A stretch of DNA of 40,885 bases from Thermoplasmatota archaeon (GCA_965234725.1 CBDDUX010000028.1:1-40885), one strand, 5' to 3'; counted from the first letter of the stretch, positions 2,021 through 14,413 are shown. Numbers and translations are program-made. Notes: generated by a model from the letters alone, not told the origin.

Positions 2021-5000
2021 ATGATGGTAATAGGGAAAAGAATATTCTGTCGAGAAATGGAGGTTATTATTGCGGTAATTATAACCCTTGGTATGATATC
2101 AACGCTCCTTCCTATCGGATATGCCAAAGAAATTAGAGAAAGCAATTCTAGAGGTGTAGACGGTTGGACAGATATTGCAGAAGAAAAAGGGTCTTTCTTT
2201 CTTGACACCTCTCATGATATGATCATTTCTTACGATGAAGGAGAGGATACGGTCATATTCGGAGAGTCCTACGATCCCTATTATGATCTTGAGGGACCAA
2301 TAAGAAAGGCCGTTGATAGAGCGCCACAATGGTTGAACGATACTCTTGTATGGTCATTCCTGAATATCTACAGCCAATACAGGATGAAGTTTGCTGAGAT
2401 ACTTCTCAACGAATCTATAGACAGCAGGTACATGGATGAGATCGCTTTCACTCTCGCATACATGCCATCCACATTCCTGAACTATTACAGGATAGAGGGA
2501 AAGTTCCTTTGGGAGAATGCAGATATCATGTACACCGTATCTGACGATGTTAGATATGCCGAGATCTCCGATTACAACCTCTCGGATGGTCAACATTCAA
2601 CTATAACTTACAAAGTTCCATCCGGGAATGTGACCATGCCTGAGAAGATCTACTACTATTACGTGGTCATGCCAAAGATCGGTTCCGATAACTTGGAATA
2701 CATGGACCCGGAAACCGGTGAGTTCGCCTTCTCATATGACGGAGGAGAATTTTGGAGGACCTGGCTCTATAATAACAACCACACAGGTTTCCCTCTTTTA
2801 AAGGATTATCTGGCCAGCGAGGATTATCTCTGGAATGGTACCATGAACCAGATAGAGAAAAATGGTGCCGTTGGTGCCCTTACTAAATGGGAAATGGAAT
2901 CAATGATGTTCGGTATGCCTGTGGTCAGGCAAATCAATCCCATCTTCATATATAGGAACCACATGGGTATGTGCGGGGAGAATGCGTACATCCTTGCTAG
3001 TGTCGCAAAAATAGCCCTGATTCCAACGGTGATCACTGTGACATGGGAAGGAAATCATGAATGGAATGATTTCTGGGAGCGGGGTTGGCATCAATGGGAA
3101 GGATATTCAGGTCAGATAGATAATCCAAGTTGTGAAGGTGCACCCGGAACAATAACTGCATTCACATCAGTCAATCCAGATTTCTCACATTTCAGTTTAA
3201 CCGGTTGTTATACAACCACATCAAACCTGACTGTAAAGGTTTCCGATCAGGATGGTATTCCTGTAGATGGGGTTCTAGTAAAATTGCATTCATATCCAGC
3301 GATCAATGTTGATGGATCATTGGGTCTCATCTCTAACTTGACTGACGTCAATGGAGAGACGACCTTTGAGATAGGTACAGGTTTCAGCTACTTCGTAAAT
3401 TACAGGGCACCGATTGGAGGGCCACCCGATCAAAACGCTCAAGCGGTCTTTGCCTGCACGACGACAGTACCAGGTGCCGATTATATTTTCAATCTTACCC
3501 TCCCCGGAAAGATGCCTCTGAAAGTGAATTACTCAGATACCAAAGAGATGACATACGGTCTGAGATTCAATATCTCGGCTGAAGAAATCGACCATCTAAC
3601 CAACTTCTATGAGGATGATATGGATTTCAATGTGAGAATATGGAAGGGATATGAGGATATTACCAGATTGTCGGTACATTTCCTGGATGATAATAACCTT
3701 CAACTCTATAGACAGGGAAAGAAGTTTTTCACAAGTGGTGTAGTGAATTTGACTGAAGACAAGGAAGGATCAATAATTCTTGAGGATAAAAAATGGAACA
3801 TCCTGATAGCGGGAAAGAGCGCACCTTTGACTCGGACTTATGCGTCCTTGAACATTAATGTGAGCAGATCGCTAGTTACACCCGAGTCACTGATCATATC
3901 TCCAATAAATGGTTCCCTTTTCAAAGTGGAAGAGTGGGTTACATTTGAAGGGGATATCGATTTCCTAATGGGGAGTAACCAAGGTTATTCATTTAGATGG
4001 TTCGATAGATTATCGTCCTCTATCCTGTCAGAAAAGAGGTCCTTCAGTATGCAATTCGATGTGGGTACCCATGTAATCGATTTCGAGATCTGGAAGGATG
4101 GAATTATGATATCAACCTCAGTGGTTGAGTTCAAGGTATATCAGCCTAATAGACCACCTATAGCTGTAATAGCAAGTCCTTCAAACAACGACGTTTTCAC
4201 ATATGGTACCAAAGTGGAGTTTTCCGCCGAAGGTAGTTACGATCCGGATGAAGATGGTATCTCATACCGATGGAGTGAATTAGGGATCAATATAACCATT
4301 TCGAATCAGAAGGAGTTCTCTTCAAAGTTCGATGTAGGAGTTCACTTTATCGAGTTATTGGTCACAGATGATGAGGGGGATTCAACAAAAGAACAGGTGA
4401 AATTCAGGATATTGGAACCCACCTTTCCGCCAGTACCAACTATCAGATCTCCAATTTCCAATTGGAAAACCTATGAGGATGAATGGATAGAACTTAATGC
4501 CAGCGGAACCTACGATCTGGATGGGGACGTTCTGAAATACACGTGGATAAGTTCCATAGATGATGTGATCTCAAAATCTAAGATTGATAGCGTACATCTG
4601 TCAGTCGGAAACCATATTATCGAACTGCAGGTGAGCGACGGAATGTACACTGAATCCAAGTTCGTCAATGTTACTGTCATGGAGAGGGAGGTTGAGATCC
4701 AAGATTCTGAACCCGTATCTTTGATAATTTCTCCTTATGTAATGGTTGAATATTTTGTATCGGACCTGATCGAGTTCAATGCAAGTGCCAGTTATGATCC
4801 CGATGGAAATACAAATCTGACCTTTGAGTGGAGATTGAATGGCGAACCTATATCTAGCGAAAAAGTGTTTTTTAAGTATCTTACGGAAGGAAGTCATCAG
4901 ATCCAGCTCTCCGTTTTCTCCGGAGATCTGGTTTCAAATTCCTCTCAGATAATTACTGTAATTGACAGGATCCCAATCATGAAAATCCGTGTAAATGAAA

Positions 5001-5422
5001 CAATATGGATTGATAGTGAGATCATTAAAATAACATCATTCGAGAACATCACATTCGATGCTTCAGGATGTAGGGACCCTGATGGGAGTGAACTCTCCTA
5101 CGATTGGTCAATAAATGGCACAAGTATCTCAAATAACATAGAATTCGTCCATTCGTTCGAACCGGGAATGTTTCTGGTCCATCTGACCATCCGTGATGGT
5201 GGAGGGAAGGTCAATTCATTTTCTTTGTACATCAACTCCTCTAAGATAATCGAATCTAAAATGGATGAACCGGTGGTTAATGATGAAGGATCCAATGGAA
5301 AAGGGACCCTACATCAATTGTTTGTGATAATACCTATCGTCATTCTACTAATTATCATGGGTTTGTTAATCTTCCTGGTTATTTGGTACCGAAAAAACAG
5401 AGAAGAAAACATCACCAACTGA
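2021..5422 (+). CDS. Membrane-anchored surface protein: transglutaminase-like domain, carboxypeptidase-regulatory-like domain and PKD repeats
   Basis: Signal-like N-terminus (true start may be ATG 2057). GMCGE...NHEWNDFW...GWHQW fits a transglutaminase-like Cys/His core. Repeated SYDPD/ASGTYDLDGD PKD signatures. C-terminal TM helix followed by RKNR. Confidence 0.75.
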   Translation: MMVIGKRIFCREMEVIIAVIITLGMISTLLPIGYAKEIRESNSRGVDGWTDIAEEKGSFFLDTSHDMIISYDEGEDTVIFGESYDPYYDLEGPIRKAVDRAPQWLNDTLVWSFLNIYSQYRMKFAEILLNESIDSRYMDEIAFTLAYMPSTFLNYYRIEGKFLWENADIMYTVSDDVRYAEISDYNLSDGQHSTITYKVPSGNVTMPEKIYYYYVVMPKIGSDNLEYMDPETGEFAFSYDGGEFWRTWLYNNNHTGFPLLKDYLASEDYLWNGTMNQIEKNGAVGALTKWEMESMMFGMPVVRQINPIFIYRNHMGMCGENAYILASVAKIALIPTVITVTWEGNHEWNDFWERGWHQWEGYSGQIDNPSCEGAPGTITAFTSVNPDFSHFSLTGCYTTTSNLTVKVSDQDGIPVDGVLVKLHSYPAINVDGSLGLISNLTDVNGETTFEIGTGFSYFVNYRAPIGGPPDQNAQAVFACTTTVPGADYIFNLTLPGKMPLKVNYSDTKEMTYGLRFNISAEEIDHLTNFYEDDMDFNVRIWKGYEDITRLSVHFLDDNNLQLYRQGKKFFTSGVVNLTEDKEGSIILEDKKWNILIAGKSAPLTRTYASLNINVSRSLVTPESLIISPINGSLFKVEEWVTFEGDIDFLMGSNQGYSFRWFDRLSSSILSEKRSFSMQFDVGTHVIDFEIWKDGIMISTSVVEFKVYQPNRPPIAVIASPSNNDVFTYGTKVEFSAEGSYDPDEDGISYRWSELGINITISNQKEFSSKFDVGVHFIELLVTDDEGDSTKEQVKFRILEPTFPPVPTIRSPISNWKTYEDEWIELNASGTYDLDGDVLKYTWISSIDDVISKSKIDSVHLSVGNHIIELQVSDGMYTESKFVNVTVMEREVEIQDSEPVSLIISPYVMVEYFVSDLIEFNASASYDPDGNTNLTFEWRLNGEPISSEKVFFKYLTEGSHQIQLSVFSGDLVSNSSQIITVIDRIPIMKIRVNETIWIDSEIIKITSFENITFDASGCRDPDGSELSYDWSINGTSISNNIEFVHSFEPGMFLVHLTIRDGGGKVNSFSLYINSSKIIESKMDEPVVNDEGSNGKGTLHQLFVIIPIVILLIIMGLLIFLVIWYRKNREENITN

Positions 5423-5457: not shown

Positions 5458-5482
5458 AGTGGCCCGGTCGGGACCTTTGAAC
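5458..5482 (-). repeat. tRNA-Ala 3'-end fragment, copy A
   Basis: AGTGGcCCGGTCGGGA(cc)TTTGAAC vs tRNA locus 14338-14360 AGTGGACCGGTCGGGATTTGAAC: 1 mismatch plus a 2-nt insertion. Confidence 0.85.
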
Positions 5483-5680
5483 TGTATTGATATCTACGAA
5501 CATTAAAGTTCAAAGGGCCAAACAAAAAACGGTTCCGATTATATTATTATCATTTTTTGTTGTGTACAAGCAATTTGTAGCAATGGTTTTCGTAGAAATT
5601 TGGAATTGACGATAGAAAACCATTGCGGAATAGGTCCACTCTCCGATTCTAATTATAAAACAATTAAAGGAGAGTGGACC
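5474..5680. repeat. Three consecutive perfect inverted repeats with 23-24 nt loops
   Basis: CCTTTGAACT 5474-5483 / AGTTCAAAGG 5507-5516; GCAATGGTTTTC 5580-5591 / GAAAACCATTGC 5615-5626; GGTCCACTCTCC 5633-5644 / GGAGAGTGGACC 5669-5680. Confidence 0.85.
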
Positions 5681-5711
5681 GATCGGGATCCACCTCCATA
5701 ATGGTTTAGAA
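5672..5711 (-). repeat. tRNA-Ala 3'-end fragment, copy B, with GTTTAGAA arm
   Basis: GAGTGGACCGaTCGGGAT (17/18 to the tRNA locus). GTTTAGAA at 5704 has the same offset as in copies D and F. Confidence 0.85.
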
Positions 5712-5893
5712 ATCATATTATTATGTTTGAATTACTGCCACTTGGTGTTCTTGTTGCTCAATTTACTGTATCATTTTTAGGGTACAGTCCAAAATTCTTA
5801 GAGAATCCATCTGACCATCCGGAAATATGTACCGTACTTACAATAAAACTTTAATAAAGTATACAGATTTAAAATCGCCAGATAAAGGAAATA

Positions 5894-8800
5894 ATGGCGA
5901 TCCCAATGACCTTCAAACTACCGTCTTCAGCATTATCACTAATCATAACAATTCTCATCGGATCGCTGATCCTCACACCATCGATTCAGATCAGTGGTTT
6001 GGGGGAGATCAGCGAGAAAGAAGGATATCAATTTGCTTCATTCAGTTCAAATCTACCGGTGACCTACGATCTGCGAAATGTCAGCGGGGAGAATTACGTC
6101 ACATCGGTCAAGAATCAAAGCGGAGGGACATGCTGGACACACGGGGCGATGGCCTCGATGGAGGGGAACCTGTTGATGACCGGGGAGTGGACCTCAGTCA
6201 ATGAGACAGGTGAACCGAACCTGGCCGAGTACCACCTGGATTGGTGGAACGGATTCAACAAGCACAACAATGATGATATCACCCCATCCACCGGTGAGGG
6301 GTTGGATGTACATTACGGTGGGGATTATCTGGTCACATCCGCTTCCATGTCCCGTGGGGAAGGAGCCGTTAGGGATATCGACGGCCAGTCATTTTCCATA
6401 CCACCGAATCGAACCGACCCGTCCTATCACAAATATTACGCCAGGGACATCGAATGGTATGTATTGAACGAAAATCTGAGCAATATCGATTTGATCAAAT
6501 CGAAGATCATTGAAAACGGCGTCATGGGAACCTGCATGACGTATTCCTCCGCCTTCATGGACTATTCGAGATATACCCATTATCAGCCTCCAGCTGTGGC
6601 AATGGAACCGAACCATGCCGTCTCTATCGTAGGATGGAACGACTCCAAGGTCACGCAGGCCCCGCTTCTCGGAGCATGGTTGGTAAAGAACAGCTGGGGT
6701 CCCTCCTGGGGTTTGAACGGATACTTCTGGATATCATATTACGACAAGTACACCGCAAAACATCCGGAGATGGGAGCGATCTCTTTCATCGATGTGGAGT
6801 ATCTATCCTACAATCATACTTATTATCATGACTACCACGGTTGGAGGGATACCCTTCAGAATACTAGCGAGGCGTTCAATTCATTTATTCCCGGTGAGGA
6901 AGAACAGCTTCAGGCGGTGAACTTCTACACCGCATCCGATAATGTCGATTTCGAGGTTGTCATCTACGATACTTTCCGGGACGGGAAGCTGTCCGAACCG
7001 CTATCGAAGGTAAATGGAAGTATCAACCATACCGGCCTGCACACCGTGGACCTTATCGAACCGGTAAACCTGGAATCAGGAGATGATTTCCATATTTACC
7101 TAAGTTTGTCGGAAGGAGGACATCCATACGATCGAACATCGGAGATACCGGTCCTCCTCGATGGACCCTTTCAGGGAACGATCGTCAGATCGACATCCTC
7201 TCCGAATCAAAGTTGGTATCGGAACGGATCGAAATGGGACGACCTCTTCTACCTTAACAGCACCGCCAATTTCTGTATAAAGGGACTAGTCGGTCATCTG
7301 AGCATCATGAATCCGGTAAACAGATCCCACGTTAACGGTGAGATCGCGATCGAGGGAGATGCCTCATGGGCCATAGACAGGATCGAGATCCGACTGGACG
7401 GAGAGATTCTTGACATAATCCGGGATGTACCAGAGGATTGGTCGATTCCCCTCAACACGACCCTTATCCCCGAAGGGGATCACAGAGTTGATGTGTCGGG
7501 ATATAACGGGACCGTGATCAGGCACAGATCGGTAGAATTCACTGTGGATCGGACACCTCCGGTGTCGACGATCCTGGTAATGGGTCCCGAGGGAGAGAGA
7601 GGTTGGTTAACGGGGGAGGCGGAGGTCAATCTCACTGCAGTGGACGATCTTGCGGTTGATCATGTCGAATATCGGATCAACGGTGGGGATTGGCAGGCCT
7701 ATTCTGGAAATATCTCCCTAGACATCGACGGCGTATACATCCTGAAATACAGATCATCGGATATTCTGGGAAATATCGAAGAGGGGAATGAGGCAATCAT
7801 AAAGATCGATGCAGGGTATCCTTCAACGGAATACACAATATACGGTGAGATGGGTGAGAGAGATTGGTACACTTCACCGATTTCTCTGAATCTGACCGCG
7901 GAGGACGAAACAAGCGGTGTCGATATGACCTATTACAACCTTAACGGCGGTGATTGGTCAGTTTACACAAAGAAGATAATGATAGATGACGGCGGCAGCT
8001 ATTCATTTGGATTCTATTCGATCGATACGGCAGGCAATACTGGGGAGATCATGGTCATCAACTTCAGCATGGATAATGATATTCCCTTGGTGGAAACCAC
8101 CATCTCCGGTGAGAAAGGGGAAAACGGCTGGTTCCTGTCGAATGTCAGTGTTACCATGTCAGGATTCGACGGAACGAGTGGCGTGTCCAATATCTCCTAT
8201 GGAGTGAACGGTGGCACATGGAAATACTACTCAGAGATGTTCGGGATCGATACCGAAGGCGAGAACCGGATCGATTACAACGTAGAGGACCAAGCGGGAA
8301 ATATTGCTGAGTTAACATCCGAAACGGTATTGATCGATACCGGCGCACCGAGTTCGAACTTGAAAATACAAGGTGATCTCGGGAATAACGACTGGTTCAT
8401 TACCGGAACCGTCGTCGATATTCGGGGTGAGGATGAGATCAGCGGTTTCTACAAGATCGAGATCCGCCTCGACGGGGGAGAATGGAAGGATTTTAAACCC
8501 AATATGGTCATCGATGAGAACGGGCATCACTTCATCGAATACCGGTCAATTGACATAGCTGGCAACACGGAGGAGAGCCGAAATGTTTCTTTCAGGATTG
8601 ACATTGTTCCTCCGGCGATATCCGAACTTGTAGGAGCGGAGATAGTCAATGATACCGGGAATTCCCTCTACATCTCTTGGACAGCTGCTGATCAGGAAAG
8701 CGGAGTATTGAACCATTCCATCTCCATCGACGGAAGTCGTTTCATCGAACTCGGAACAAACACTAGCTGGGAATTACAGGATCCCGAAGCGGGTCAGCAC

Positions 8801-9151
8801 ATGATCATGATCAGAACGTATGATTCAGCCGGCAACACGGCAGTGGAATACATTATCGTTACCACAAACCCGTTCAATCCTCTCGATCCAAGCAGAGGAA
8901 ACGAGACCATACTCGATGATGATGATACGTCAGTTGATCCCCCCGTGAACGAAACGACCAATGGCGGGACCGGGGCAGGATGGATCATAGCCATAATACT
9001 TCTCCCGGTTGTGATCCTGGTCGTGGCGGTTTTGATCTCTCTTTTTCTCATTTCACGCCTGAAAAACGATGATGATCCTCGTGGAATCGATGAAGATGCC
9101 GGAGATCCCGATCGGAACCGGGGTCCCGTTCCACCTAAAAGCGATGGTTGA
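5894..9151 (+). CDS. Membrane-anchored papain-family (C1A) cysteine peptidase with lectin-like domain and Ig-like (OmpL47-type) repeats
   Basis: Signal peptide. Catalytic motifs [20 protein letters not shown] and VKNSWG are intact. Repeated GxxGWF...D..SGV...YRSIDxAGNxE modules. C-terminal TM helix. Confidence 0.9.
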
Positions 9152-9269
9152 CAATGCGGTAATCGTTGATGAGATGACATTATCAATTACCAAACAGACA
9201 AGCGGATGATGGGATATCCAAGAGTACTCACAAATTATAATATATACTTTTATTATCTATTTTTACAAT

Positions 9270-9401
9270 AGTGGACTGGTCGAGTTCTAAACCGGTATTG
9301 ATTTGGATATCAATAATGATATATTATCAATATATATACTAAAATTATAAAGATAATATAGAATGGACCGGTCGGGTTCTATATTGATTCTGGTTTAGAA
9401 C
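9270..9401 (-). repeat. Paired tRNA-Ala 3'-end fragments, copies C and D (92-bp spacing)
   Basis: C 9270-9293 AGTGGACtGGTCGaGtTcTaAACC (19/24). D 9364-9376 TGGACCGGTCGGG (13/13) with GTTTAGAAC at 9393. Ungapped colinearity with 14246-14355 (about 69/110 by hand). Confidence 0.85.
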
Positions 9402-9429
9402 GAATATCAAGAACAAATAATTGGAGGGT

Positions 9430-12400
9430 TCATTTGGACTTAATAACTACTTCAAAAGAGATCTGAAAAATGTTCAAACCTTCTTCACTCGCAATCCAGA
9501 GTTGATCGTCGAATAATTCGATATCCCTGACTGAATTGCTCAACAATCCATGAGTTTTATTTATGAACATCCATTCTTCTGTTGTTTTATTGTATATTTT
9601 GACCCCATATTTCGTTCCCAGGTAAATCCTATCATCCTCCATCTCAATATCAGCAATCCAATCTTCCTGAGTTAAAATGGTGCCGATATTTAGGGAGATG
9701 GAACGGAATGCTACATTATCATTGTTAAGTTGCCAAAGAACGATATCATCCTTGTTCACTGACATAATTTCTGGCCTGAGATTATAAAATGACCCATATA
9801 CCGAATGATAGTTATCCTTATCCGTCTTCTCTATCCATGACATTGTCCAGTCATCCCAGAAATATAATTGTTCTTCTGAGGTATTGAATATGTATATGCC
9901 GCTTAAGGTCATTAAGTAGATATTATCTCCCTCTTTCTCGATGGATTGAACATAATCATCTATCAGATACCCGTTCTTTGACCCAAATGCAGTCCATGTT
10001 CCCGTCATTTTATTATAACAGCTTATTCCACCAAATGGACGAATTCCCATTGTATATTGCCAATTTCCTGATGTTGCTACCCAAACGAAATCGTCATCGG
10101 CAATTATGTCATCAACCCAGTAATATCCATGTTCGGCTTCTCCAAGTCCAGTTTCCAATGTGAAATTACTCCAGGTGCCCTCTATTTGATCATAAAGTGA
10201 TATTCCACCATAAGTGCCGACCCATACGATCTCATCGTCTACCTCGATACAATTGATCCAATTTGAAAGAAGTCCATTACTTTCATTGAAGTACAACATT
10301 TCATCAGTATCCGGATCGTATCTATACAGTCCGTTATCATCAGAATCCCAATCAAAGCAACTGATCCATGAATATTCATCCGTAACCTCGATCTCCCGGA
10401 TATTTTCAAGATTAAAATGACCGATCTCTTCAAATTTGATGATTTCCACTTCTTTCTGGTTAATTGGGATTTCATCCACCGAATTGTGGTTCCCGGTTTC
10501 TTTCAATAAAATTGCTATTATCGGAAGTGTAAAGAGGAGTAATACCGAAATCACCATTGTCTTTGTTTTAATCTCCCCTTTTCTTCTTAATAATAGAAAA
10601 AACAACAAAATAAGTCCCATATATAAAATTACGAAAACAATGTAAATCTTCCCATCATTTTCCTTATGCAGTGTCCAGTTCCCGGAATCATTCGGAAATT
10701 GGTCCAATTCCAATCCTAAGGTCGAATTCTTCCTTGATTGGCCAACATTCCATTGATCGGGATATCCATCATTATCAGAATCAATGCTCGCAGAAATATC
10801 CAAGGGGAAGTCATCGGTATTATCACCTGTGCCATCATTATCGGTATCATTCCATTCGGAGGGGTTCTCTGGGAATGCATCCCGATTATCTCCCCATCCA
10901 TCTCTATCCGTATCATTCCAATCAAATGGATCCTCCGGAAATACATCTCGGTTGTCTCCCCATCCATCATGGTCCGTATCTTTCCATTCAGCAGGATTTT
11001 TTATAAAAACATCCTGGTTATCTCCCCATCCATCATTGTCCGTGTCATTCCATTCTGTTGGATCATTAGGGAACAGGTCCCTATTGTCATCCCATCCGTC
11101 CCTGTCGGGATCATTCCATTCCCTGGGTTCCGGAAATCCATATCCGGATATCAGATATGTCTGGCCTGCTTCCAATCCGCCTTCATCATTATAACCAGCC
11201 CCGATGAGGATATCATCGAAACCATCACCATTCACATCACCGGCTCCTGAAATGTCATACCCAGAATGATCAGAAGCTGCCTCCCCGATAAATGACACAT
11301 CAGCACAAGCTAACCTCATATCCATAATCCAACCGCTGACCCTACCCAAGATGATGTATGTTTGGCCTGCTCGGTACCCGCCCTCATCATTAAACCGAGC
11401 TCCAATAATCAAGTCATCGTATCCGTCACTATTTAGATCGCCGGCCCCGGAAACCGGATACCCTGACCAATCACCGCTATGTTCGCCCAGGAACGAAGCA
11501 TCCGATAAGGAAAGATCCATACCCAATCTCCAGCCGTTCGCTCGACCAAGTATCAGATAGGTCTGACCTGCGGATCCCTTTTCCTCATCATTTAAACGTG
11601 CTCCAATTAAAATATCGTCGTAACCATCTCCATTCACATCACCAGCAATCGAAACGGAGGAACCAGAATAATCTCTGTTTGCTTCACCAATGAAGGATGC
11701 ATCTGGAGACAAATCCATATCCTTGTTCCAACCGTTGCCTCGGCCAAGAATAAGTAAAGTCCTGCCCACATTGTATCTTCTGTCATCATTGTACCCATCA
11801 GATCCAAGGAGAATATCGTCATATCCATCACCGTTCACATCTCCCCCTCCCGATACGGATTCTCCGGATGGCAAAGGGATCGATCCATTCAATGAGGACA
11901 AGTCCATGTTCTTGCTCCAACCGGTGGATCGGCCCTGAACAAGATAAGATTCGTACCTTTCAGATCCGATGAGTATGTCGTCGTATCCATCCCCGTTCAC
12001 ATCACCGGCTCCGGAGATCGCATTGTCAGAACAATCTGTGAACGATGCATTTGCAAGTGACATGTTCATGTCCGCTCTCCATCCAGTGGAACGACCGAAG
12101 AAAAGATATCCATGTATCCAGTCTGGCCATTCTTCATCATGTGCTTCTGCCGCAATGAGTATATCATCATATCCGTCACCGTTGATATCACCTACTCCGG
12201 ATACGGATTTCCCCAACAGATCACCCTCGGTCTCCCCGAGGAATGATGCGTCTGATAGGGATAGATCCGTATCTCTTTTCCATCCAGTTGTCCTACCAAG
12301 TATCAGATATGCCTGACCCGCATTTTCCCCTCCCTCATCGTTCACACTTGCCCCTATGAGTATATCATCGAGGCCATCACCGTTCACGTCCCCCGCTCTG

Positions 12401-12615
12401 GAAAGGGATCTTCCGGAAAGATCGTGTTCGGCTTCGCCTATGAATGTTGCTAGTGAAACTTGAGATAATTTCGTCTCTACGTGATAATTCTGATCATTTG
12501 TTGATGGGATGCTGCCTTCAGCTAAAATTAAGATATGATCTGCTTGGAGTATTAATGCTAATGTGATAACAAGAAGAAATGGGGTTGATATTATCCAATC
12601 TCCCTTTCCCTTCAT
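9430..12615 (-). CDS. Surface protein: FG-GAP (integrin-alpha) beta-propeller, TSP3-like Ca-binding repeats, two TM helices and a second (Reg_prop-like) beta-propeller
   Basis: Seven GD(V/I/L)NxDGxDDxxIx blades, 22-aa WNDTDxDGWGDNxDxFP repeats, two internal hydrophobic helices, and GLLSNWINCIE / GLLSNSVRDIE motifs. Confidence 0.85.
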   Translation of the reverse strand: MKGKGDWIISTPFLLVITLALILQADHILILAEGSIPSTNDQNYHVETKLSQVSLATFIGEAEHDLSGRSLSRAGDVNGDGLDDILIGASVNDEGGENAGQAYLILGRTTGWKRDTDLSLSDASFLGETEGDLLGKSVSGVGDINGDGYDDILIAAEAHDEEWPDWIHGYLFFGRSTGWRADMNMSLANASFTDCSDNAISGAGDVNGDGYDDILIGSERYESYLVQGRSTGWSKNMDLSSLNGSIPLPSGESVSGGGDVNGDGYDDILLGSDGYNDDRRYNVGRTLLILGRGNGWNKDMDLSPDASFIGEANRDYSGSSVSIAGDVNGDGYDDILIGARLNDEEKGSAGQTYLILGRANGWRLGMDLSLSDASFLGEHSGDWSGYPVSGAGDLNSDGYDDLIIGARFNDEGGYRAGQTYIILGRVSGWIMDMRLACADVSFIGEAASDHSGYDISGAGDVNGDGFDDILIGAGYNDEGGLEAGQTYLISGYGFPEPREWNDPDRDGWDDNRDLFPNDPTEWNDTDNDGWGDNQDVFIKNPAEWKDTDHDGWGDNRDVFPEDPFDWNDTDRDGWGDNRDAFPENPSEWNDTDNDGTGDNTDDFPLDISASIDSDNDGYPDQWNVGQSRKNSTLGLELDQFPNDSGNWTLHKENDGKIYIVFVILYMGLILLFFLLLRRKGEIKTKTMVISVLLLFTLPIIAILLKETGNHNSVDEIPINQKEVEIIKFEEIGHFNLENIREIEVTDEYSWISCFDWDSDDNGLYRYDPDTDEMLYFNESNGLLSNWINCIEVDDEIVWVGTYGGISLYDQIEGTWSNFTLETGLGEAEHGYYWVDDIIADDDFVWVATSGNWQYTMGIRPFGGISCYNKMTGTWTAFGSKNGYLIDDYVQSIEKEGDNIYLMTLSGIYIFNTSEEQLYFWDDWTMSWIEKTDKDNYHSVYGSFYNLRPEIMSVNKDDIVLWQLNNDNVAFRSISLNIGTILTQEDWIADIEMEDDRIYLGTKYGVKIYNKTTEEWMFINKTHGLLSNSVRDIELFDDQLWIASEEGLNIFQISFEVVIKSK
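10790..11120 (-). repeat. Intragenic 66-bp tandem repeat (about 5 units) encoding TSP3-like Asp-rich repeats
   Basis: GTATCATTCCATTC-like units recur near 10843, 10909, 10975, 11041 and 11107. Confidence 0.85.
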
Positions 12616-12757
12616 GAGAACTCATAGAGCATAATATATAAGTTGATTATTGAACAAAGATGACTTCCACAAGTCTTTTCATTCCTTCTTCGGAGAGTTG
12701 CGAATATACTATCTTAATGGAGATTTTTTCACATCAACCAGGCAAAGGTGAAAAACA

Positions 12758-12889
12758 AGTAGATCGACCGAGATTTGAACCTATTTGGAAGTAGAACGAA
12801 ATAATCACATATAACCCAGATATATGCCATAATAATCAAAATATTGAATGGTGGACCGGTCGGGATTTGATCCAATATTAGTTTAGAAC
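12758..12889 (-). repeat. Paired tRNA-Ala 3'-end fragments, copies E and F (92-bp spacing)
   Basis: E 12758-12781 (19/24) with TAGAAC at 12792. F 12851-12870 is a 20/20 match to 14339-14358, with GTTTAGAAC at 12881. 12758-12873 aligns ungapped to 14246-14361 (about 88/116 by hand). Confidence 0.92.
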
Positions 12890-13041
12890 TAATTCTTTCA
12901 TGACCACTCTTTGCGAATAATACAATGACGGTTTTTTCAAGGTGACTATATTTCAGTTGGTGAAATTGAGATAAAATAAGTTGGCGATTACAGATTACAA
13001 TATCACTAATGAAACCCCATGAAGAACACTTTTTCATTTCA

Positions 13042-13947
13042 CTACTTGGCACCATATGCATAGATTACGTCAAGGGTGACCCTCCGGATATTTTTTCCCT
13101 CGAAGTATCTTCTGATATCCTTTCTGAAGGTTTCCATGTATCCTTCCGGGAGGAAGGACGCATAGAACTCCCCTGTTGAGGATGTTATGAACTCGTACAT
13201 CTCTCGGCTGGTGTCATATTCATCATACCAGGTGGACCGTTCGATCTTGATATCCTTGAGTCCGTTCTTTCCGAGATATTCTCTCACTTTTTCAGGTCCT
13301 CTCGGCCAGTAGAAGAATCTGTGGCCCAGGGCGTATCTCTTCGGAACAACCGCCAGAACAGCGTCCGGGAGTTCCGCATAATGGCGAGGTCCGTGGACCG
13401 AGAGTGCGATTGTACCTTCCGGTTTCACAACCCTCTTCATCTCGATTAACATCTTCTCGGGATCGGGAACCATTCCGAGGACCATGCTAGATACAACCAT
13501 ATCGAAGATGTTGTCTTCAAAGGGAAGATCCTCCGCATCCGCGACCTTGATCTCCAGTTTATCAATATAGCGATCGGAGGTCTCGATCTTCTTTTTCAGC
13601 GCTTTGAGCATGTATTCGGATATGTCTGTTGCACATACCTTTCGGGCTCCCTTATCAAGGAGTTTTAGGGCGGAAATTCCGGTACCGCTTCCGATGTCGA
13701 GAACGTATTTTCCCTTGACATCGATACCTTGGAACAGTTCCTCTGCAACCTTCTCGTAATGCTTCTGACCGTATTCATCGTAATCCTTCATGACAGATGT
13801 CAAATCTCCATCGTAGGATTTCATGATCCTCTCTTTCATATCCTTCGTATCCCGAAGATTTCCAGCAATCCATGCGATGATGTTGTTCACGTTCATCAGC
13901 AATTTCTTGAAGAATGACACTTCCCCGGTCCAGAGTATATCAGGCAT
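13042..13947 (-). CDS. Class I SAM-dependent methyltransferase (Methyltransf_11/UbiE-like)
   Basis: VLDIGSGTG motif I, ADAEDLPFEDNIFDMV, and EMKRVVKPEG. Confidence 0.9.
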   Translation of the reverse strand: MPDILWTGEVSFFKKLLMNVNNIIAWIAGNLRDTKDMKERIMKSYDGDLTSVMKDYDEYGQKHYEKVAEELFQGIDVKGKYVLDIGSGTGISALKLLDKGARKVCATDISEYMLKALKKKIETSDRYIDKLEIKVADAEDLPFEDNIFDMVVSSMVLGMVPDPEKMLIEMKRVVKPEGTIALSVHGPRHYAELPDAVLAVVPKRYALGHRFFYWPRGPEKVREYLGKNGLKDIKIERSTWYDEYDTSREMYEFITSSTGEFYASFLPEGYMETFRKDIRRYFEGKNIRRVTLDVIYAYGAK

Positions 13948-14245
13948 ACTTCCATACCATCCTTCTTCAGGACAATATTAGATATCGTAATATCAAATAT
14001 ACAAATCTTATCAATTATCCTCTTCATATATTTTTATAAATATCCTTGGCACTCACTTGGAATTGGTTTGGTATAAATTCTCCGCTCGAAATTTTTTATT
14101 AAATTTGTAAGGATTTAAGGTTTGGGAGAGAATAAAACGTTTCGACAGTATCAGATTTCAATTTCAATAGGCTTTTCTATGACAATGTTTTTAGAGATAA
14201 ATTCAACAGTTAATGATATTTGATATTCTCTTATCTTGGCAATAT

Positions 14246-14285
14246 AGTGGACCGGTCGAGACTTGAACCTATTTCATAGTAGAAC
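14246..14285 (-). repeat. tRNA-Ala 3'-end fragment, copy G, 92 bp downstream of the tRNA gene
   Basis: AGTGGACCGGTCGaGAcTTGAACC (22/24) with TAGAAC at 14280. Confidence 0.92.
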
Positions 14286-14326
14286 GAAATATTGTAATAT
14301 TATCCAGAATAATGATAGAATAATCT

Positions 14327-14332
14327 AAAAAA
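14327..14332 (-). terminator. Oligo-T archaeal terminator candidate for tRNA-Ala
   Basis: T6 run on the minus strand 7 nt after the discriminator base. Confidence 0.45.
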
Positions 14333-14339
14333 GGATGAG

Positions 14340-14413
14340 TGGACCGGTCGGGATTTGAACCCGAGGCCTCTCGCATGCCAAGCGAGCGATCTACCGAGCT
14401 GATCTACCGGCCC
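14340..14413 (-). tRNA. tRNA-Ala (GGC), CCA not encoded
   Basis: Reverse complement folds as GGGCCGG-TA-GATC-AGCTCGGTA-GATC-G-CTCGC-TT-GGC-AT-GCGAG-AGGCC-TCGGG-TTCAAAT-CCCGA-CCGGTCC-A, with the G3:U70 alanine identity pair. Confidence 0.97.

Follow-up and report, generated by a model that had tools for sequence, protein, structure and literature searches.

Gene cassettes and a 92-bp non-coding module stacked behind the tRNA-Ala(GGC) gene of a Thermoplasmatota archaeon

Organization of the Array

The DNA considered here is a 40,885-nucleotide stretch from a Thermoplasmatota archaeon (GCA_965234725.1 CBDDUX010000028.1:1-40885), called the window below, in which gene cassettes devoid of integrase are stacked behind the 3' end of the sole tRNA gene, a tRNA-Ala(GGC) gene. 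This 3' end, which reads TGGACCGGTCGGGATTTGAACC on the + strand, recurs along the array as pairs of short cores. Each pair marks both ends of a 92-base non-coding module lying between successive cassettes. An earlier sequence-only reading of the same stretch had described these pairs as a conserved doublet. In what follows, G000 is the genome that contains the window, its relatives are numbered G001 onwards and C stands for a contig.

The repeated core corresponds to the last 13–22 nt of tRNA-Ala(GGC). Its copies start at 14340 (the tRNA itself), 14248, 12852, 12760, 9364 and 9272, and they form three pairs whose members are exactly 92 bp apart. The 22-mer core, searched with at most 3 mismatches, occurs three times against none in 100 shuffles. 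As expected for a tandem accretion, direct repeats with the same sequence as the 3' part of the tRNA gene flank the inserted DNA, and the tRNA itself is intact. On the other side of the tRNA lies a gene encoding a PrsW-type protease. This flank finds matches in 14 of 23 family relatives, and tRNA-Ala(GGC) is present at all eight of these loci that were examined. The units found on the array side are listed in Table 1; beyond the three pairs, two further cores, 215 bp apart, bound a different, hairpin-rich module.

Table 1. Units of the array in the window, from the tRNA gene outwards.
Unit	Position	Strand	Remarks
tRNA-Ala(GGC), anchor of the array (attB)	14339..14413	-	ARAGORN; Rfam RF00005, 65 bits; includes proximal core F, 14340-14361
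Module G, 92 bp	14248..14339	.	distal core 14248-14260 (TGGACCGGTCGAG), T-loop-like box, AT-rich body up to the tRNA end
Methyltransferase cassette	12874..14247	-	lone class I methyltransferase gene 13042-13947; Pfam Methyltransf_11, 2.7e-25; GTTTAGAAC box 12881-12889, 16 nt from core 12852
Module E, 92 bp	12760..12873	.	degenerate distal core 12760-12772 (TAGATCGACCGAG), body, proximal core; proximal 13-mer 12852-12864 perfect, outside any tRNA
FG-GAP/beta-propeller surface-protein cassette	9386..12759	-	single gene 9430-12615; Pfam FG-GAP, 1.2e-48; GTTTAGAAC box 9393-9401, 16 nt from core 9364
Module C, 92 bp	9272..9385	.	distal core 9272-9284 (TGGACTGGTCGAG), TTCTAAACC directly after it, body, proximal core; proximal 13-mer 9364-9376 perfect
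Papain-C1/lectin/Ig-like surface-protein cassette	5675..9271	+	gene 5894-9151; Pfam; far-end core 5675-5687 (1 mismatch), then 16 nt and GTTTAGAAA
Hairpin-rich mini-element, 215 bp	5460..5674	.	cores at 5460 and 5675; second type of junction module
PKD-domain surface-protein gene, outermost variable unit	2021..5422	+	Pfam

The 92-bp Module

A repeat search of the window returned one family of three ungapped 116-nt copies (starting at 9270, 12758 and 14246) that are 62–76% identical. The homologous unit of about 116 bp, the gapless alignment and the 92-bp spacing at 9272/9364, 12760/12852 and 14248/14340 that had been claimed from the sequence are thus all recovered. The 70-nt bodies that lie between the cores (16–27% GC) show pairwise identities of 59%, 51% and 69% at offset 0, and at most 46% at the other offsets from -8 to +8. 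Dinucleotide-shuffled bodies are 33–35% identical (sd 5.5%), and the observed values were reached by 0, 12 and 0 of 5000 of them. In the same way, the two classes of sites are clear-cut: all three distal cores of the window carry CGAG and all three proximal ones CGGG. The doublet is therefore a discrete homologous unit and not a pair of simple scars, as the sequence-only reading had proposed.

Searching 26 genomes of the order by BLAST and with a covariance model built on sequence only yielded nine copies of the module in five genomes: four in G000, two in G019 and one each in G005, G012 and G021. One of the two G019 copies is identical to a G001 contig and was counted as one copy. Indeed, G019:C47 and G001:C144, which belong to different genera, are identical over the approximately 430 nt compared at tRNA-Ala(GGC) and their whole arrays mirror each other, which suggests a shared or mis-binned contig. 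The cores are spaced by 92 bp in eight of the nine copies and by 91 bp in the remaining one (G000, contig C38, 76987); the invariance of spacing predicted across genomes thus holds with a single exception. Seven complete copies can be aligned with a single 1-nt gap, at a mean column identity of 79%. A tRNA-Ala gene (GGC or CGC) immediately precedes three copies, the others being internal.

The two ends of the module differ markedly. On the tRNA side, an Ala core is recognisable in eight copies and decayed in the ninth. The proximal 13-mer is perfect in seven of eight complete copies, four of which lie outside any tRNA; in the copy whose proximal core is incomplete, it is cut by the contig end after 8 perfect bases. 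The distal cores show 1–6 mismatches to the tRNA, carry GAG in eight of nine copies and have variants in common with one another, several of them reading GACCAGTTGAG. The G>A change of this distal class corresponds to a G-U pair in the T stem. In the alignment of complete copies, an inverted box, GTTCYAAACC, comes directly after the distal core and is followed 8 nt further by GTTTRGAA. AATAATC/TTTAGA boxes recur in the body, which also has a T-rich run immediately after the tRNA end. Such perfect cores beside freely diverging DNA point to sites that are used or refreshed rather than to dead scars.

In non-coding prokaryotic DNA, the ratio of indels to substitutions is roughly 1:10 to 1:20. One indel in nine copies is fewer than these ratios predict at such divergence, and the length of the module therefore looks constrained. 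The length is kept across genera, as the selection on geometry put forward earlier would have it; selection itself is a matter of interpretation, and neither helical phasing nor a conserved fold goes with it. The AA/TT power at 10–10.5 bp in the nine bodies gave z from -0.3 to +0.4 relative to shuffles. RNAalifold applied to the 7-copy alignment found no consensus fold (-2.8 kcal/mol on the + strand and -3.1 kcal/mol on the - strand, with pairing restricted to the palindromic cores), and the z-scores of single-sequence folding range from -3.0 to +1.2 among copies. At E<=1, the Rfam search of the window retrieved the tRNA and a sub-threshold sR7 match elsewhere, and none in the modules. No terminal inverted repeat was seen in the 92-bp module, nor in the 215-type or 155-type elements. 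The orientation of the module is fixed relative to the tRNA and not to the neighbouring gene (it is upstream of three genes and downstream of three others). Its neighbour on the distal side is a gene cassette in seven of nine cases and never another module.

Presence, Absence and Possible Reshuffling of Units among Relatives

The closest relative, G004, whose flanks are 86–97% identical to those of the window, lacks positions 9272-14339 (5,066 bp), i.e., module C, the FG-GAP gene, module E, the methyltransferase gene and module G. The breakpoints of this difference lie exactly at the distal core C (9272), which is the left end of module C, and at the tRNA core, and the array therefore changes by recombination at the cores. 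The papain-type cassette, 94.5% identical over 3.5 kb, is present in G004, where it directly abuts the tRNA without any module. Since the three modules of the window, at 62–76% identity, are far more diverged than orthologous DNA of G000 and G004, they do not result from duplication on the spot.

More distant relatives show the same units in other combinations. Homologues of the FG-GAP cassette (72–80% identity) are found beside Ala cores in G018:C172 and G022:C203. In G022, a hairpin-type mini-element occupies the junction where the window has module C. The idea of an empty module that travels with each gene is thus not borne out in its strict form, as the papain-type cassette does without it in G004 and the FG-GAP cassette is associated with another mini-element in G022. 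In G018, the FG-GAP cassette adjoins a 754-aa gene, and the same gene adjoins the tRNA-Ala(CGC) array of the congener G014, in which the cassette is absent. Between these congeners (G014:C2 and G018:C172), the 754-aa gene and a mini-element of about 216 bp are found in opposite order, suggesting a reshuffling of units inside the tRNA-Ala(CGC) array. In G021:C198, the module has on its distal side the core of another tRNA type in place of a gene. There, a Met/Ile-type core array abuts the Ala-type 92-bp module, which shows that arrays belonging to distinct tRNA types can become joined. No DNA match to the methyltransferase cassette was found in the 23 family relatives, and the 1082-aa protein encoded beside the G019 array is not an orthologue of the papain-type protein.

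Cassette Ends and the Putative Cognate Integrase

The tRNA-distal end of the gene cassettes follows a common pattern, core-N16-GTTTAGAAC, which the window shows at 9364 and 12852 and, in a form with one change, at 5675. Allowing one mismatch in the box, ten such sites are known over G000 (including C38 and C12), G004, G005, G012 and G022. The core is perfect in six of them and the adjacent 16 nt are unrelated between cassettes. The 9-mer GTTTRGAAC occurs 53 times in the 3.5-Mb genome and is located at fixed offsets within 60 bp of seven Ala cores.

A candidate for the recombinase comes from a relative, G017, where tRNA-Ala(GGC) is followed by N10, GGTTTAGAACC, a TATA-like run and the gene of a 427-aa integrase. 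This protein shares about 35% identity with a PF00589-matching protein of G000, and the profile of six homologues of this family matches the archaeal XerA structures 4a8e (E 3.5e-9) and 5hxy (E 7.3e-7); it is therefore a divergent tyrosine recombinase. In G000, the tRNA-Ala(CGC) and tRNA-Ala(UGC) genes are followed by the same N10-GGTTTAGAACC, after which the contigs break off, at the end of C102 and the start of C103. An intact homologue of the G017 integrase, 63% identical, is carried by a 2.9-kb contig of G000 (C56) and starts 30 nt from the contig end. Other members of the family are found 65–70 nt behind other tRNA genes: one, interrupted by a single stop codon and preceded by GGTTCGGAACC, behind tRNA-Arg(TCG) in G000:C97 and another behind tRNA-Pro(TGG) in G013. 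The beginning of the 92-bp module after the core (9–12 nt, then TTTAGA) resembles that of the integrase elements. In the arrays of relatives, BLASTP with the seven PF00589 proteins of G000 against 166 ORFs (open reading frames) of at least 150 aa from 18 loci retrieved no integrase, and TBLASTN the G017 integrase only.

A 310-aa XerC/D-like integrase encoded behind tRNA-Thr was also considered as the driver and was dropped, being found in only 3 of 24 family genomes; the G017/C56 family was preferred. It belongs to two paralogous blocks of G000 (C102:5408-8347 and C44:19670-21809, 82–85% identical), each of which comprises a tRNA-Thr gene (CGT or GGT), a 173-aa ORF without Pfam match, the integrase gene and a 179-aa ORF. 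Near the tRNA-Thr integrase block, intergenic fragments at G000:C102:4590-4730 resemble the 3' ends of Lys/Arg-like and Met/Ile-like tRNAs.

Proposed Mechanism and Alternatives

Starting from the repeats, the homology and spacing of the modules, their site classes, the box common to modules, cassette ends and integrase elements, the breakpoints at cores and the integrase found at tRNA-Ala in a relative, the array can be explained by serial site-specific integration of integrase-less cassettes and of the 92-bp mini-element at the 3' end of tRNA-Ala, with mobilization in trans. A probability of about 0.58 is given to this reading, in which the position of the crossover, the mobilization in trans and what the boxes do are inferred. 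The 3' end of tRNA-Ala(GGC) would be the attachment site for tyrosine-integrase recombination, and integrase-less units would stack one by one behind the tRNA, newcomers pushing older units outward. These units would be of two kinds, single-gene cassettes that mostly encode surface proteins and have core-N16-GTTTAGAAC as their distal end, and short non-coding mini-elements. The tRNA-side core of the module, with its perfect tRNA 3' end, would be an attL-type site. Its far core would be an attR-type hybrid, whose GAG T-stem part and GTTCYAAACC box would come from the element and whose acceptor part would come from the displaced tRNA end. The crossover may take place within the 13-mer, where the T-stem part gives way to the acceptor part, so that the tRNA would regain a perfect end; such a crossover would by itself give the two site classes, with no further assumptions. 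The recombinase acting in trans would be the divergent tyrosine integrase, whose own elements start with GGTTTAGAACC 10 nt behind the tRNA end. The AATAATC/TTTAGA boxes could be arm sites of the integrase and the T-rich run a terminator of the tRNA. Arm sites and a terminator in the body would account for the constant length of the module.

Several observations weigh against this model. No integrase gene is present in the window: the seven PF00589 matches and the five homologues of the G017 integrase in G000 are all located on other contigs. No Pfam family matches the G017 protein at E<=0.01. The junction that would connect C56 to tRNA-Ala falls at contig ends in G000 and is not assembled, and the TTTAGA offset is about 2 nt shorter in the modules than in the integrase elements. 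Independent serial insertion explains neither the strict alternation of modules and cassettes in the window nor the presence of a gene cassette on the distal side of seven modules out of nine. Furthermore, the distal core of module E has 5 mismatches although serial insertion would make it younger than the perfect core at 9364. As for excision, this DNA occurs in two runs, one probably from the source sample and the other with a small share of it, and neither is listed as RNA. Among their assembled contigs (contigs only), no excision or circle junction was found, all joints falling within the FG-GAP repeats, which speaks neither for nor against the model.

The most serious alternative, which is nevertheless rather unlikely, considers the doublet as the tRNA-proximal arm (P' arm) of the gene cassette located on its distal side. 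The distal core would then be an internal accessory site that was never a tRNA end, the whole unit would read perfect core, 70-bp body, GAG/GTTCYAAACC accessory site, gene and GTTTAGAAC-N16, and the 92 bp would be a fixed attP distance from core to arm. The alternation and the distal-side neighbours that serial insertion leaves aside are expected here, like the constant spacing of the cores and the internal junctions, whose order (box, body, core, N16, box) is that of an attP core between two arms. The acceptor parts of distal cores are also degenerate with a consensus of their own, and the perfect 13-mers are kept. However, the papain-type cassette of G004 has no module, and the simplest explanation for the difference between G004 and the window is a single event of 5,066 bp, from distal core to tRNA core. 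Moreover, the distal neighbour in G021:C198 is a core of another tRNA type, and other cassettes start with a 215-type element or with N10-GGTTTGGAAC instead of the module. The single clean difference in G004 and the differing partners in G022 and G021 favour independent mobility, and the module probably integrates on its own. Both possibilities raised by the sequence-only reading, an attP-like core with an accessory site or a mini-cassette, thus survive as the two leading models, the second being the more probable.

A further interpretation, which should be taken as tentative, is that the array is an actively maintained platform for the exchange of gene cassettes on tRNA genes, comparable to an integron. 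A divergent tyrosine recombinase encoded elsewhere and acting in trans would capture, excise and shuffle individual surface-protein genes, both from one to another of the three tRNA-Ala loci and from cell to cell. The selected sites would be the perfect 13-mers and the GTTTAGAAC boxes, and the module, constrained in length, would be the functional counterpart of attC. The module might also restore a perfect tRNA 3' end and a terminator after each capture. An integron in the strict sense was rejected: the head of the array is a tRNA and not an IntI gene, the contig of the window has no PF00589 match and no homologue of the G017 integrase, the module has no attC-like consensus fold on either strand and its ends are direct repeats, and the orientation of the genes is mixed (papain-type and PKD genes on the + strand, FG-GAP and methyltransferase genes on the - strand). 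The same is true for a MITE (miniature inverted-repeat transposable element), since terminal inverted repeats are lacking and the insertion is site-specific, with a recognisable Ala core in eight of nine copies, three of them directly after tRNA-Ala.

It is improbable that the module is a host regulatory or RNA element (tRNA trailer or terminator, promoter, small RNA) rather than mobile DNA. In its favour, copies located after real tRNAs have their T-rich run immediately past the core, and both sequence and length are conserved across genera. However, the module matches no Rfam family and has no consensus fold, its orientation is not tied to that of the neighbouring gene, and together with its flanking units it is present or absent between close relatives.

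No more credible is the hypothesis that the repeats are target-site duplications made by a Cas1-type casposase, the tRNA acting as the "leader" of a CRISPR-like array that grows on the leader side. Casposons duplicate 14–15 bp of their target, and the repeated block of many mini-elements measures 13–17 nt. In addition, C59 carries a 407-aa Cas1 gene without adjoining Cas2/Cas4 match; the distance to the 3' end of tRNA-Leu(CAG) is about 1.1 kb, and the terminal sequence of the Cas1 element recurs behind a second tRNA-Leu-like end on C55. Against this, the block follows the structure of the tRNA, from the 3' strand of the T stem to the end of the gene (13–22 nt), and has no fixed length. Furthermore, the distal class has an element-specific GAG that target duplication would not produce, the mini-elements have no terminal inverted repeats, and they show no similarity to the C59 terminus. 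The Cas1 element itself (G000:C59:6-2456), which comprises the 407-aa Cas1 gene and a 315-aa ORF and ends about 200 bp from the 3' end of tRNA-Leu(CAG), looks like a casposon; its terminal sequence includes a small hairpin and recurs at C55:~240-300. A separate Cas4-Cas1/Cas2 locus is located on C106.

Lastly, that the distal cores are relics of duplicated tRNA-Ala genes (pseudo-tRNAs), or that the AT-rich bodies resemble one another by chance, is excluded, because even though the cores are tRNA sequence and the bodies very poor in GC, identity to the tRNA stops after 13–22 nt, ARAGORN and Rfam find no tRNA in the modules, the likeness of the bodies exceeds all shuffles for two pairs and nearly all for the third at offset 0 alone, and homologues exist in other genera.

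Mini-Elements behind Other tRNA Genes

The module had been thought to be special to these junctions. This does not hold: behind 13 of the 37 non-Ala tRNA genes of G000, the last 16 nt of the gene recur just downstream, at 113–261 bp, in up to five tandem units (e.g., C20:24656-25430, C5:2576-3008, C14:51258-51585 and C109:20624-21130). Integrase-less mini-elements targeting tRNA 3' ends are thus of several kinds, of which the 92-bp module represents one family. For example, four units spaced by 143 bp are found behind tRNA-Arg(GCG), the first two of which (the two that were compared) are identical. Many G000 contigs end at such tRNA ends.

The 215-bp type is found in the window and at G000:C38:73615-73830, C38:77435-77651 and C12:8976-9190. 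It has a predicted multi-hairpin structure, whose stems vary from copy to copy but remain complementary and one loop of which keeps ATTGACGA. Versions related to this type are found behind tRNA-Glu(CTC), tRNA-Leu(GAG) and tRNA-Gly(GCC), with ends matched to each tRNA.

Comparison with Known Systems

Islands that arise from repeated integration at tRNA genes are well known; their units are usually kilobase-sized and have their own integrase or its decayed remains. The array described here is a genomic island of this familiar kind, built from an unusually small unit of constant length. Its building blocks are single genes and non-coding pieces of 92–216 bp, with cores that stay perfect amid divergence, and roughly one in three tRNA genes of the genome is followed by a mini-element of this class. 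In titles and the opening parts of abstracts, the extent of the literature covered (supplements and subscription journals lie outside it), no constant-length 92-bp junction module was found, nor any integrase-less element of less than 250 bp bounded by repeats of a tRNA 3' end, nor such small elements spread over many tRNA genes.

The CIMEs (cis-mobilizable elements) of Streptococcus thermophilus, known from islands related to ICESt1/ICESt3, are a first point of comparison. According to the accessible part of the source, they have lost their integrase and kept attL and attR, are arranged in tandem at the 3' end of a target gene, can be joined by newcomers that enter the att site including the gene end, and may move together as composites (PMC5704250). 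The array likewise consists of integrase-less units in tandem at the 3' end of a gene. It differs from what is described there by units that are single genes or 92–216-bp non-coding DNA, by its archaeal host, by the lack of a conjugation module and by displaced cores that stay perfect while their surroundings diverge (PMC5704250).

The tycheposons of Prochlorococcus are tyrosine-recombinase elements that integrate at tRNA genes, Ala(GGC) among them. As far as the accessible text goes, nothing but a partial copy of the tRNA stands between neighbouring elements, the older of which are pushed into the island by newer arrivals, and the islands are strewn with partial tRNAs and degenerate remnants (10.1101/2020.12.28.424599). 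Tycheposons carry their own integrase and replication genes, whereas the units of the array are integrase-less; moreover, the accessible main text, supplements apart, mentions neither a junction module of constant 92-bp length nor a hairpin mini-element (10.1101/2020.12.28.424599). In the same way, for the ssrA-specific islands of Dehalococcoides, which are bacterial and larger, no conserved 92-bp doublet is described in the accessible part of the paper (PMC3146451).

In Archaea, attB sites lie mostly in tRNA genes and may comprise no more than the acceptor end, and tRNA targets change among related integrases, as stated in the accessible part of a review (PMC8371274). The integrase family considered here, found at Ala, Arg and Pro tRNAs, behaves alike, whereas its Ala-specific member differs from the integrases reviewed there by the lack of a Pfam match, and integrase-less mini-elements are not described in that part of the review (PMC8371274). 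Integrons have also been reported in Archaea (10.1101/2022.02.06.479319). Judged against the accessible part of that report, the array resembles them by its mostly single-gene, promoter-less-looking cassettes, a conserved and length-constrained module and a putative recombinase acting in trans. It differs by the absence of IntI beside the array, by direct tRNA-derived cores instead of folded imperfect palindromes and by the mixed orientation of its genes (10.1101/2022.02.06.479319).

If the integrase family moves the units in trans, this archaeal family would possess a general and very compact system for the exchange of cell-surface genes, and the 92-bp module would offer a minimal, tractable substrate on which to study how an archaeal integrase reads a tRNA end. 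From a practical point of view, it should be emphasized that the repeats break assemblies at tRNA genes and that their fragments can be mistaken for tRNA pseudogenes.

Other Features of the Window

The PKD gene, at the outer end of the array, is absent from G004, where a different 294-aa ORF is found in its place. At its outer boundary (1750-2060), and also between two G004 cassettes, no core better than 6 of 25 bases was found. A 110-aa ORF (12729-13061, - strand) extends across module E into the end of the methyltransferase gene; it matches no Pfam family, the other two modules have no counterpart, and it is probably not a gene. The FG-GAP gene contains internal DNA repeats at 10754-12424, of 201 nt (7 copies) and 66 nt (5 copies), and the contigs assembled from the source run have many alternative joints inside these repeats.

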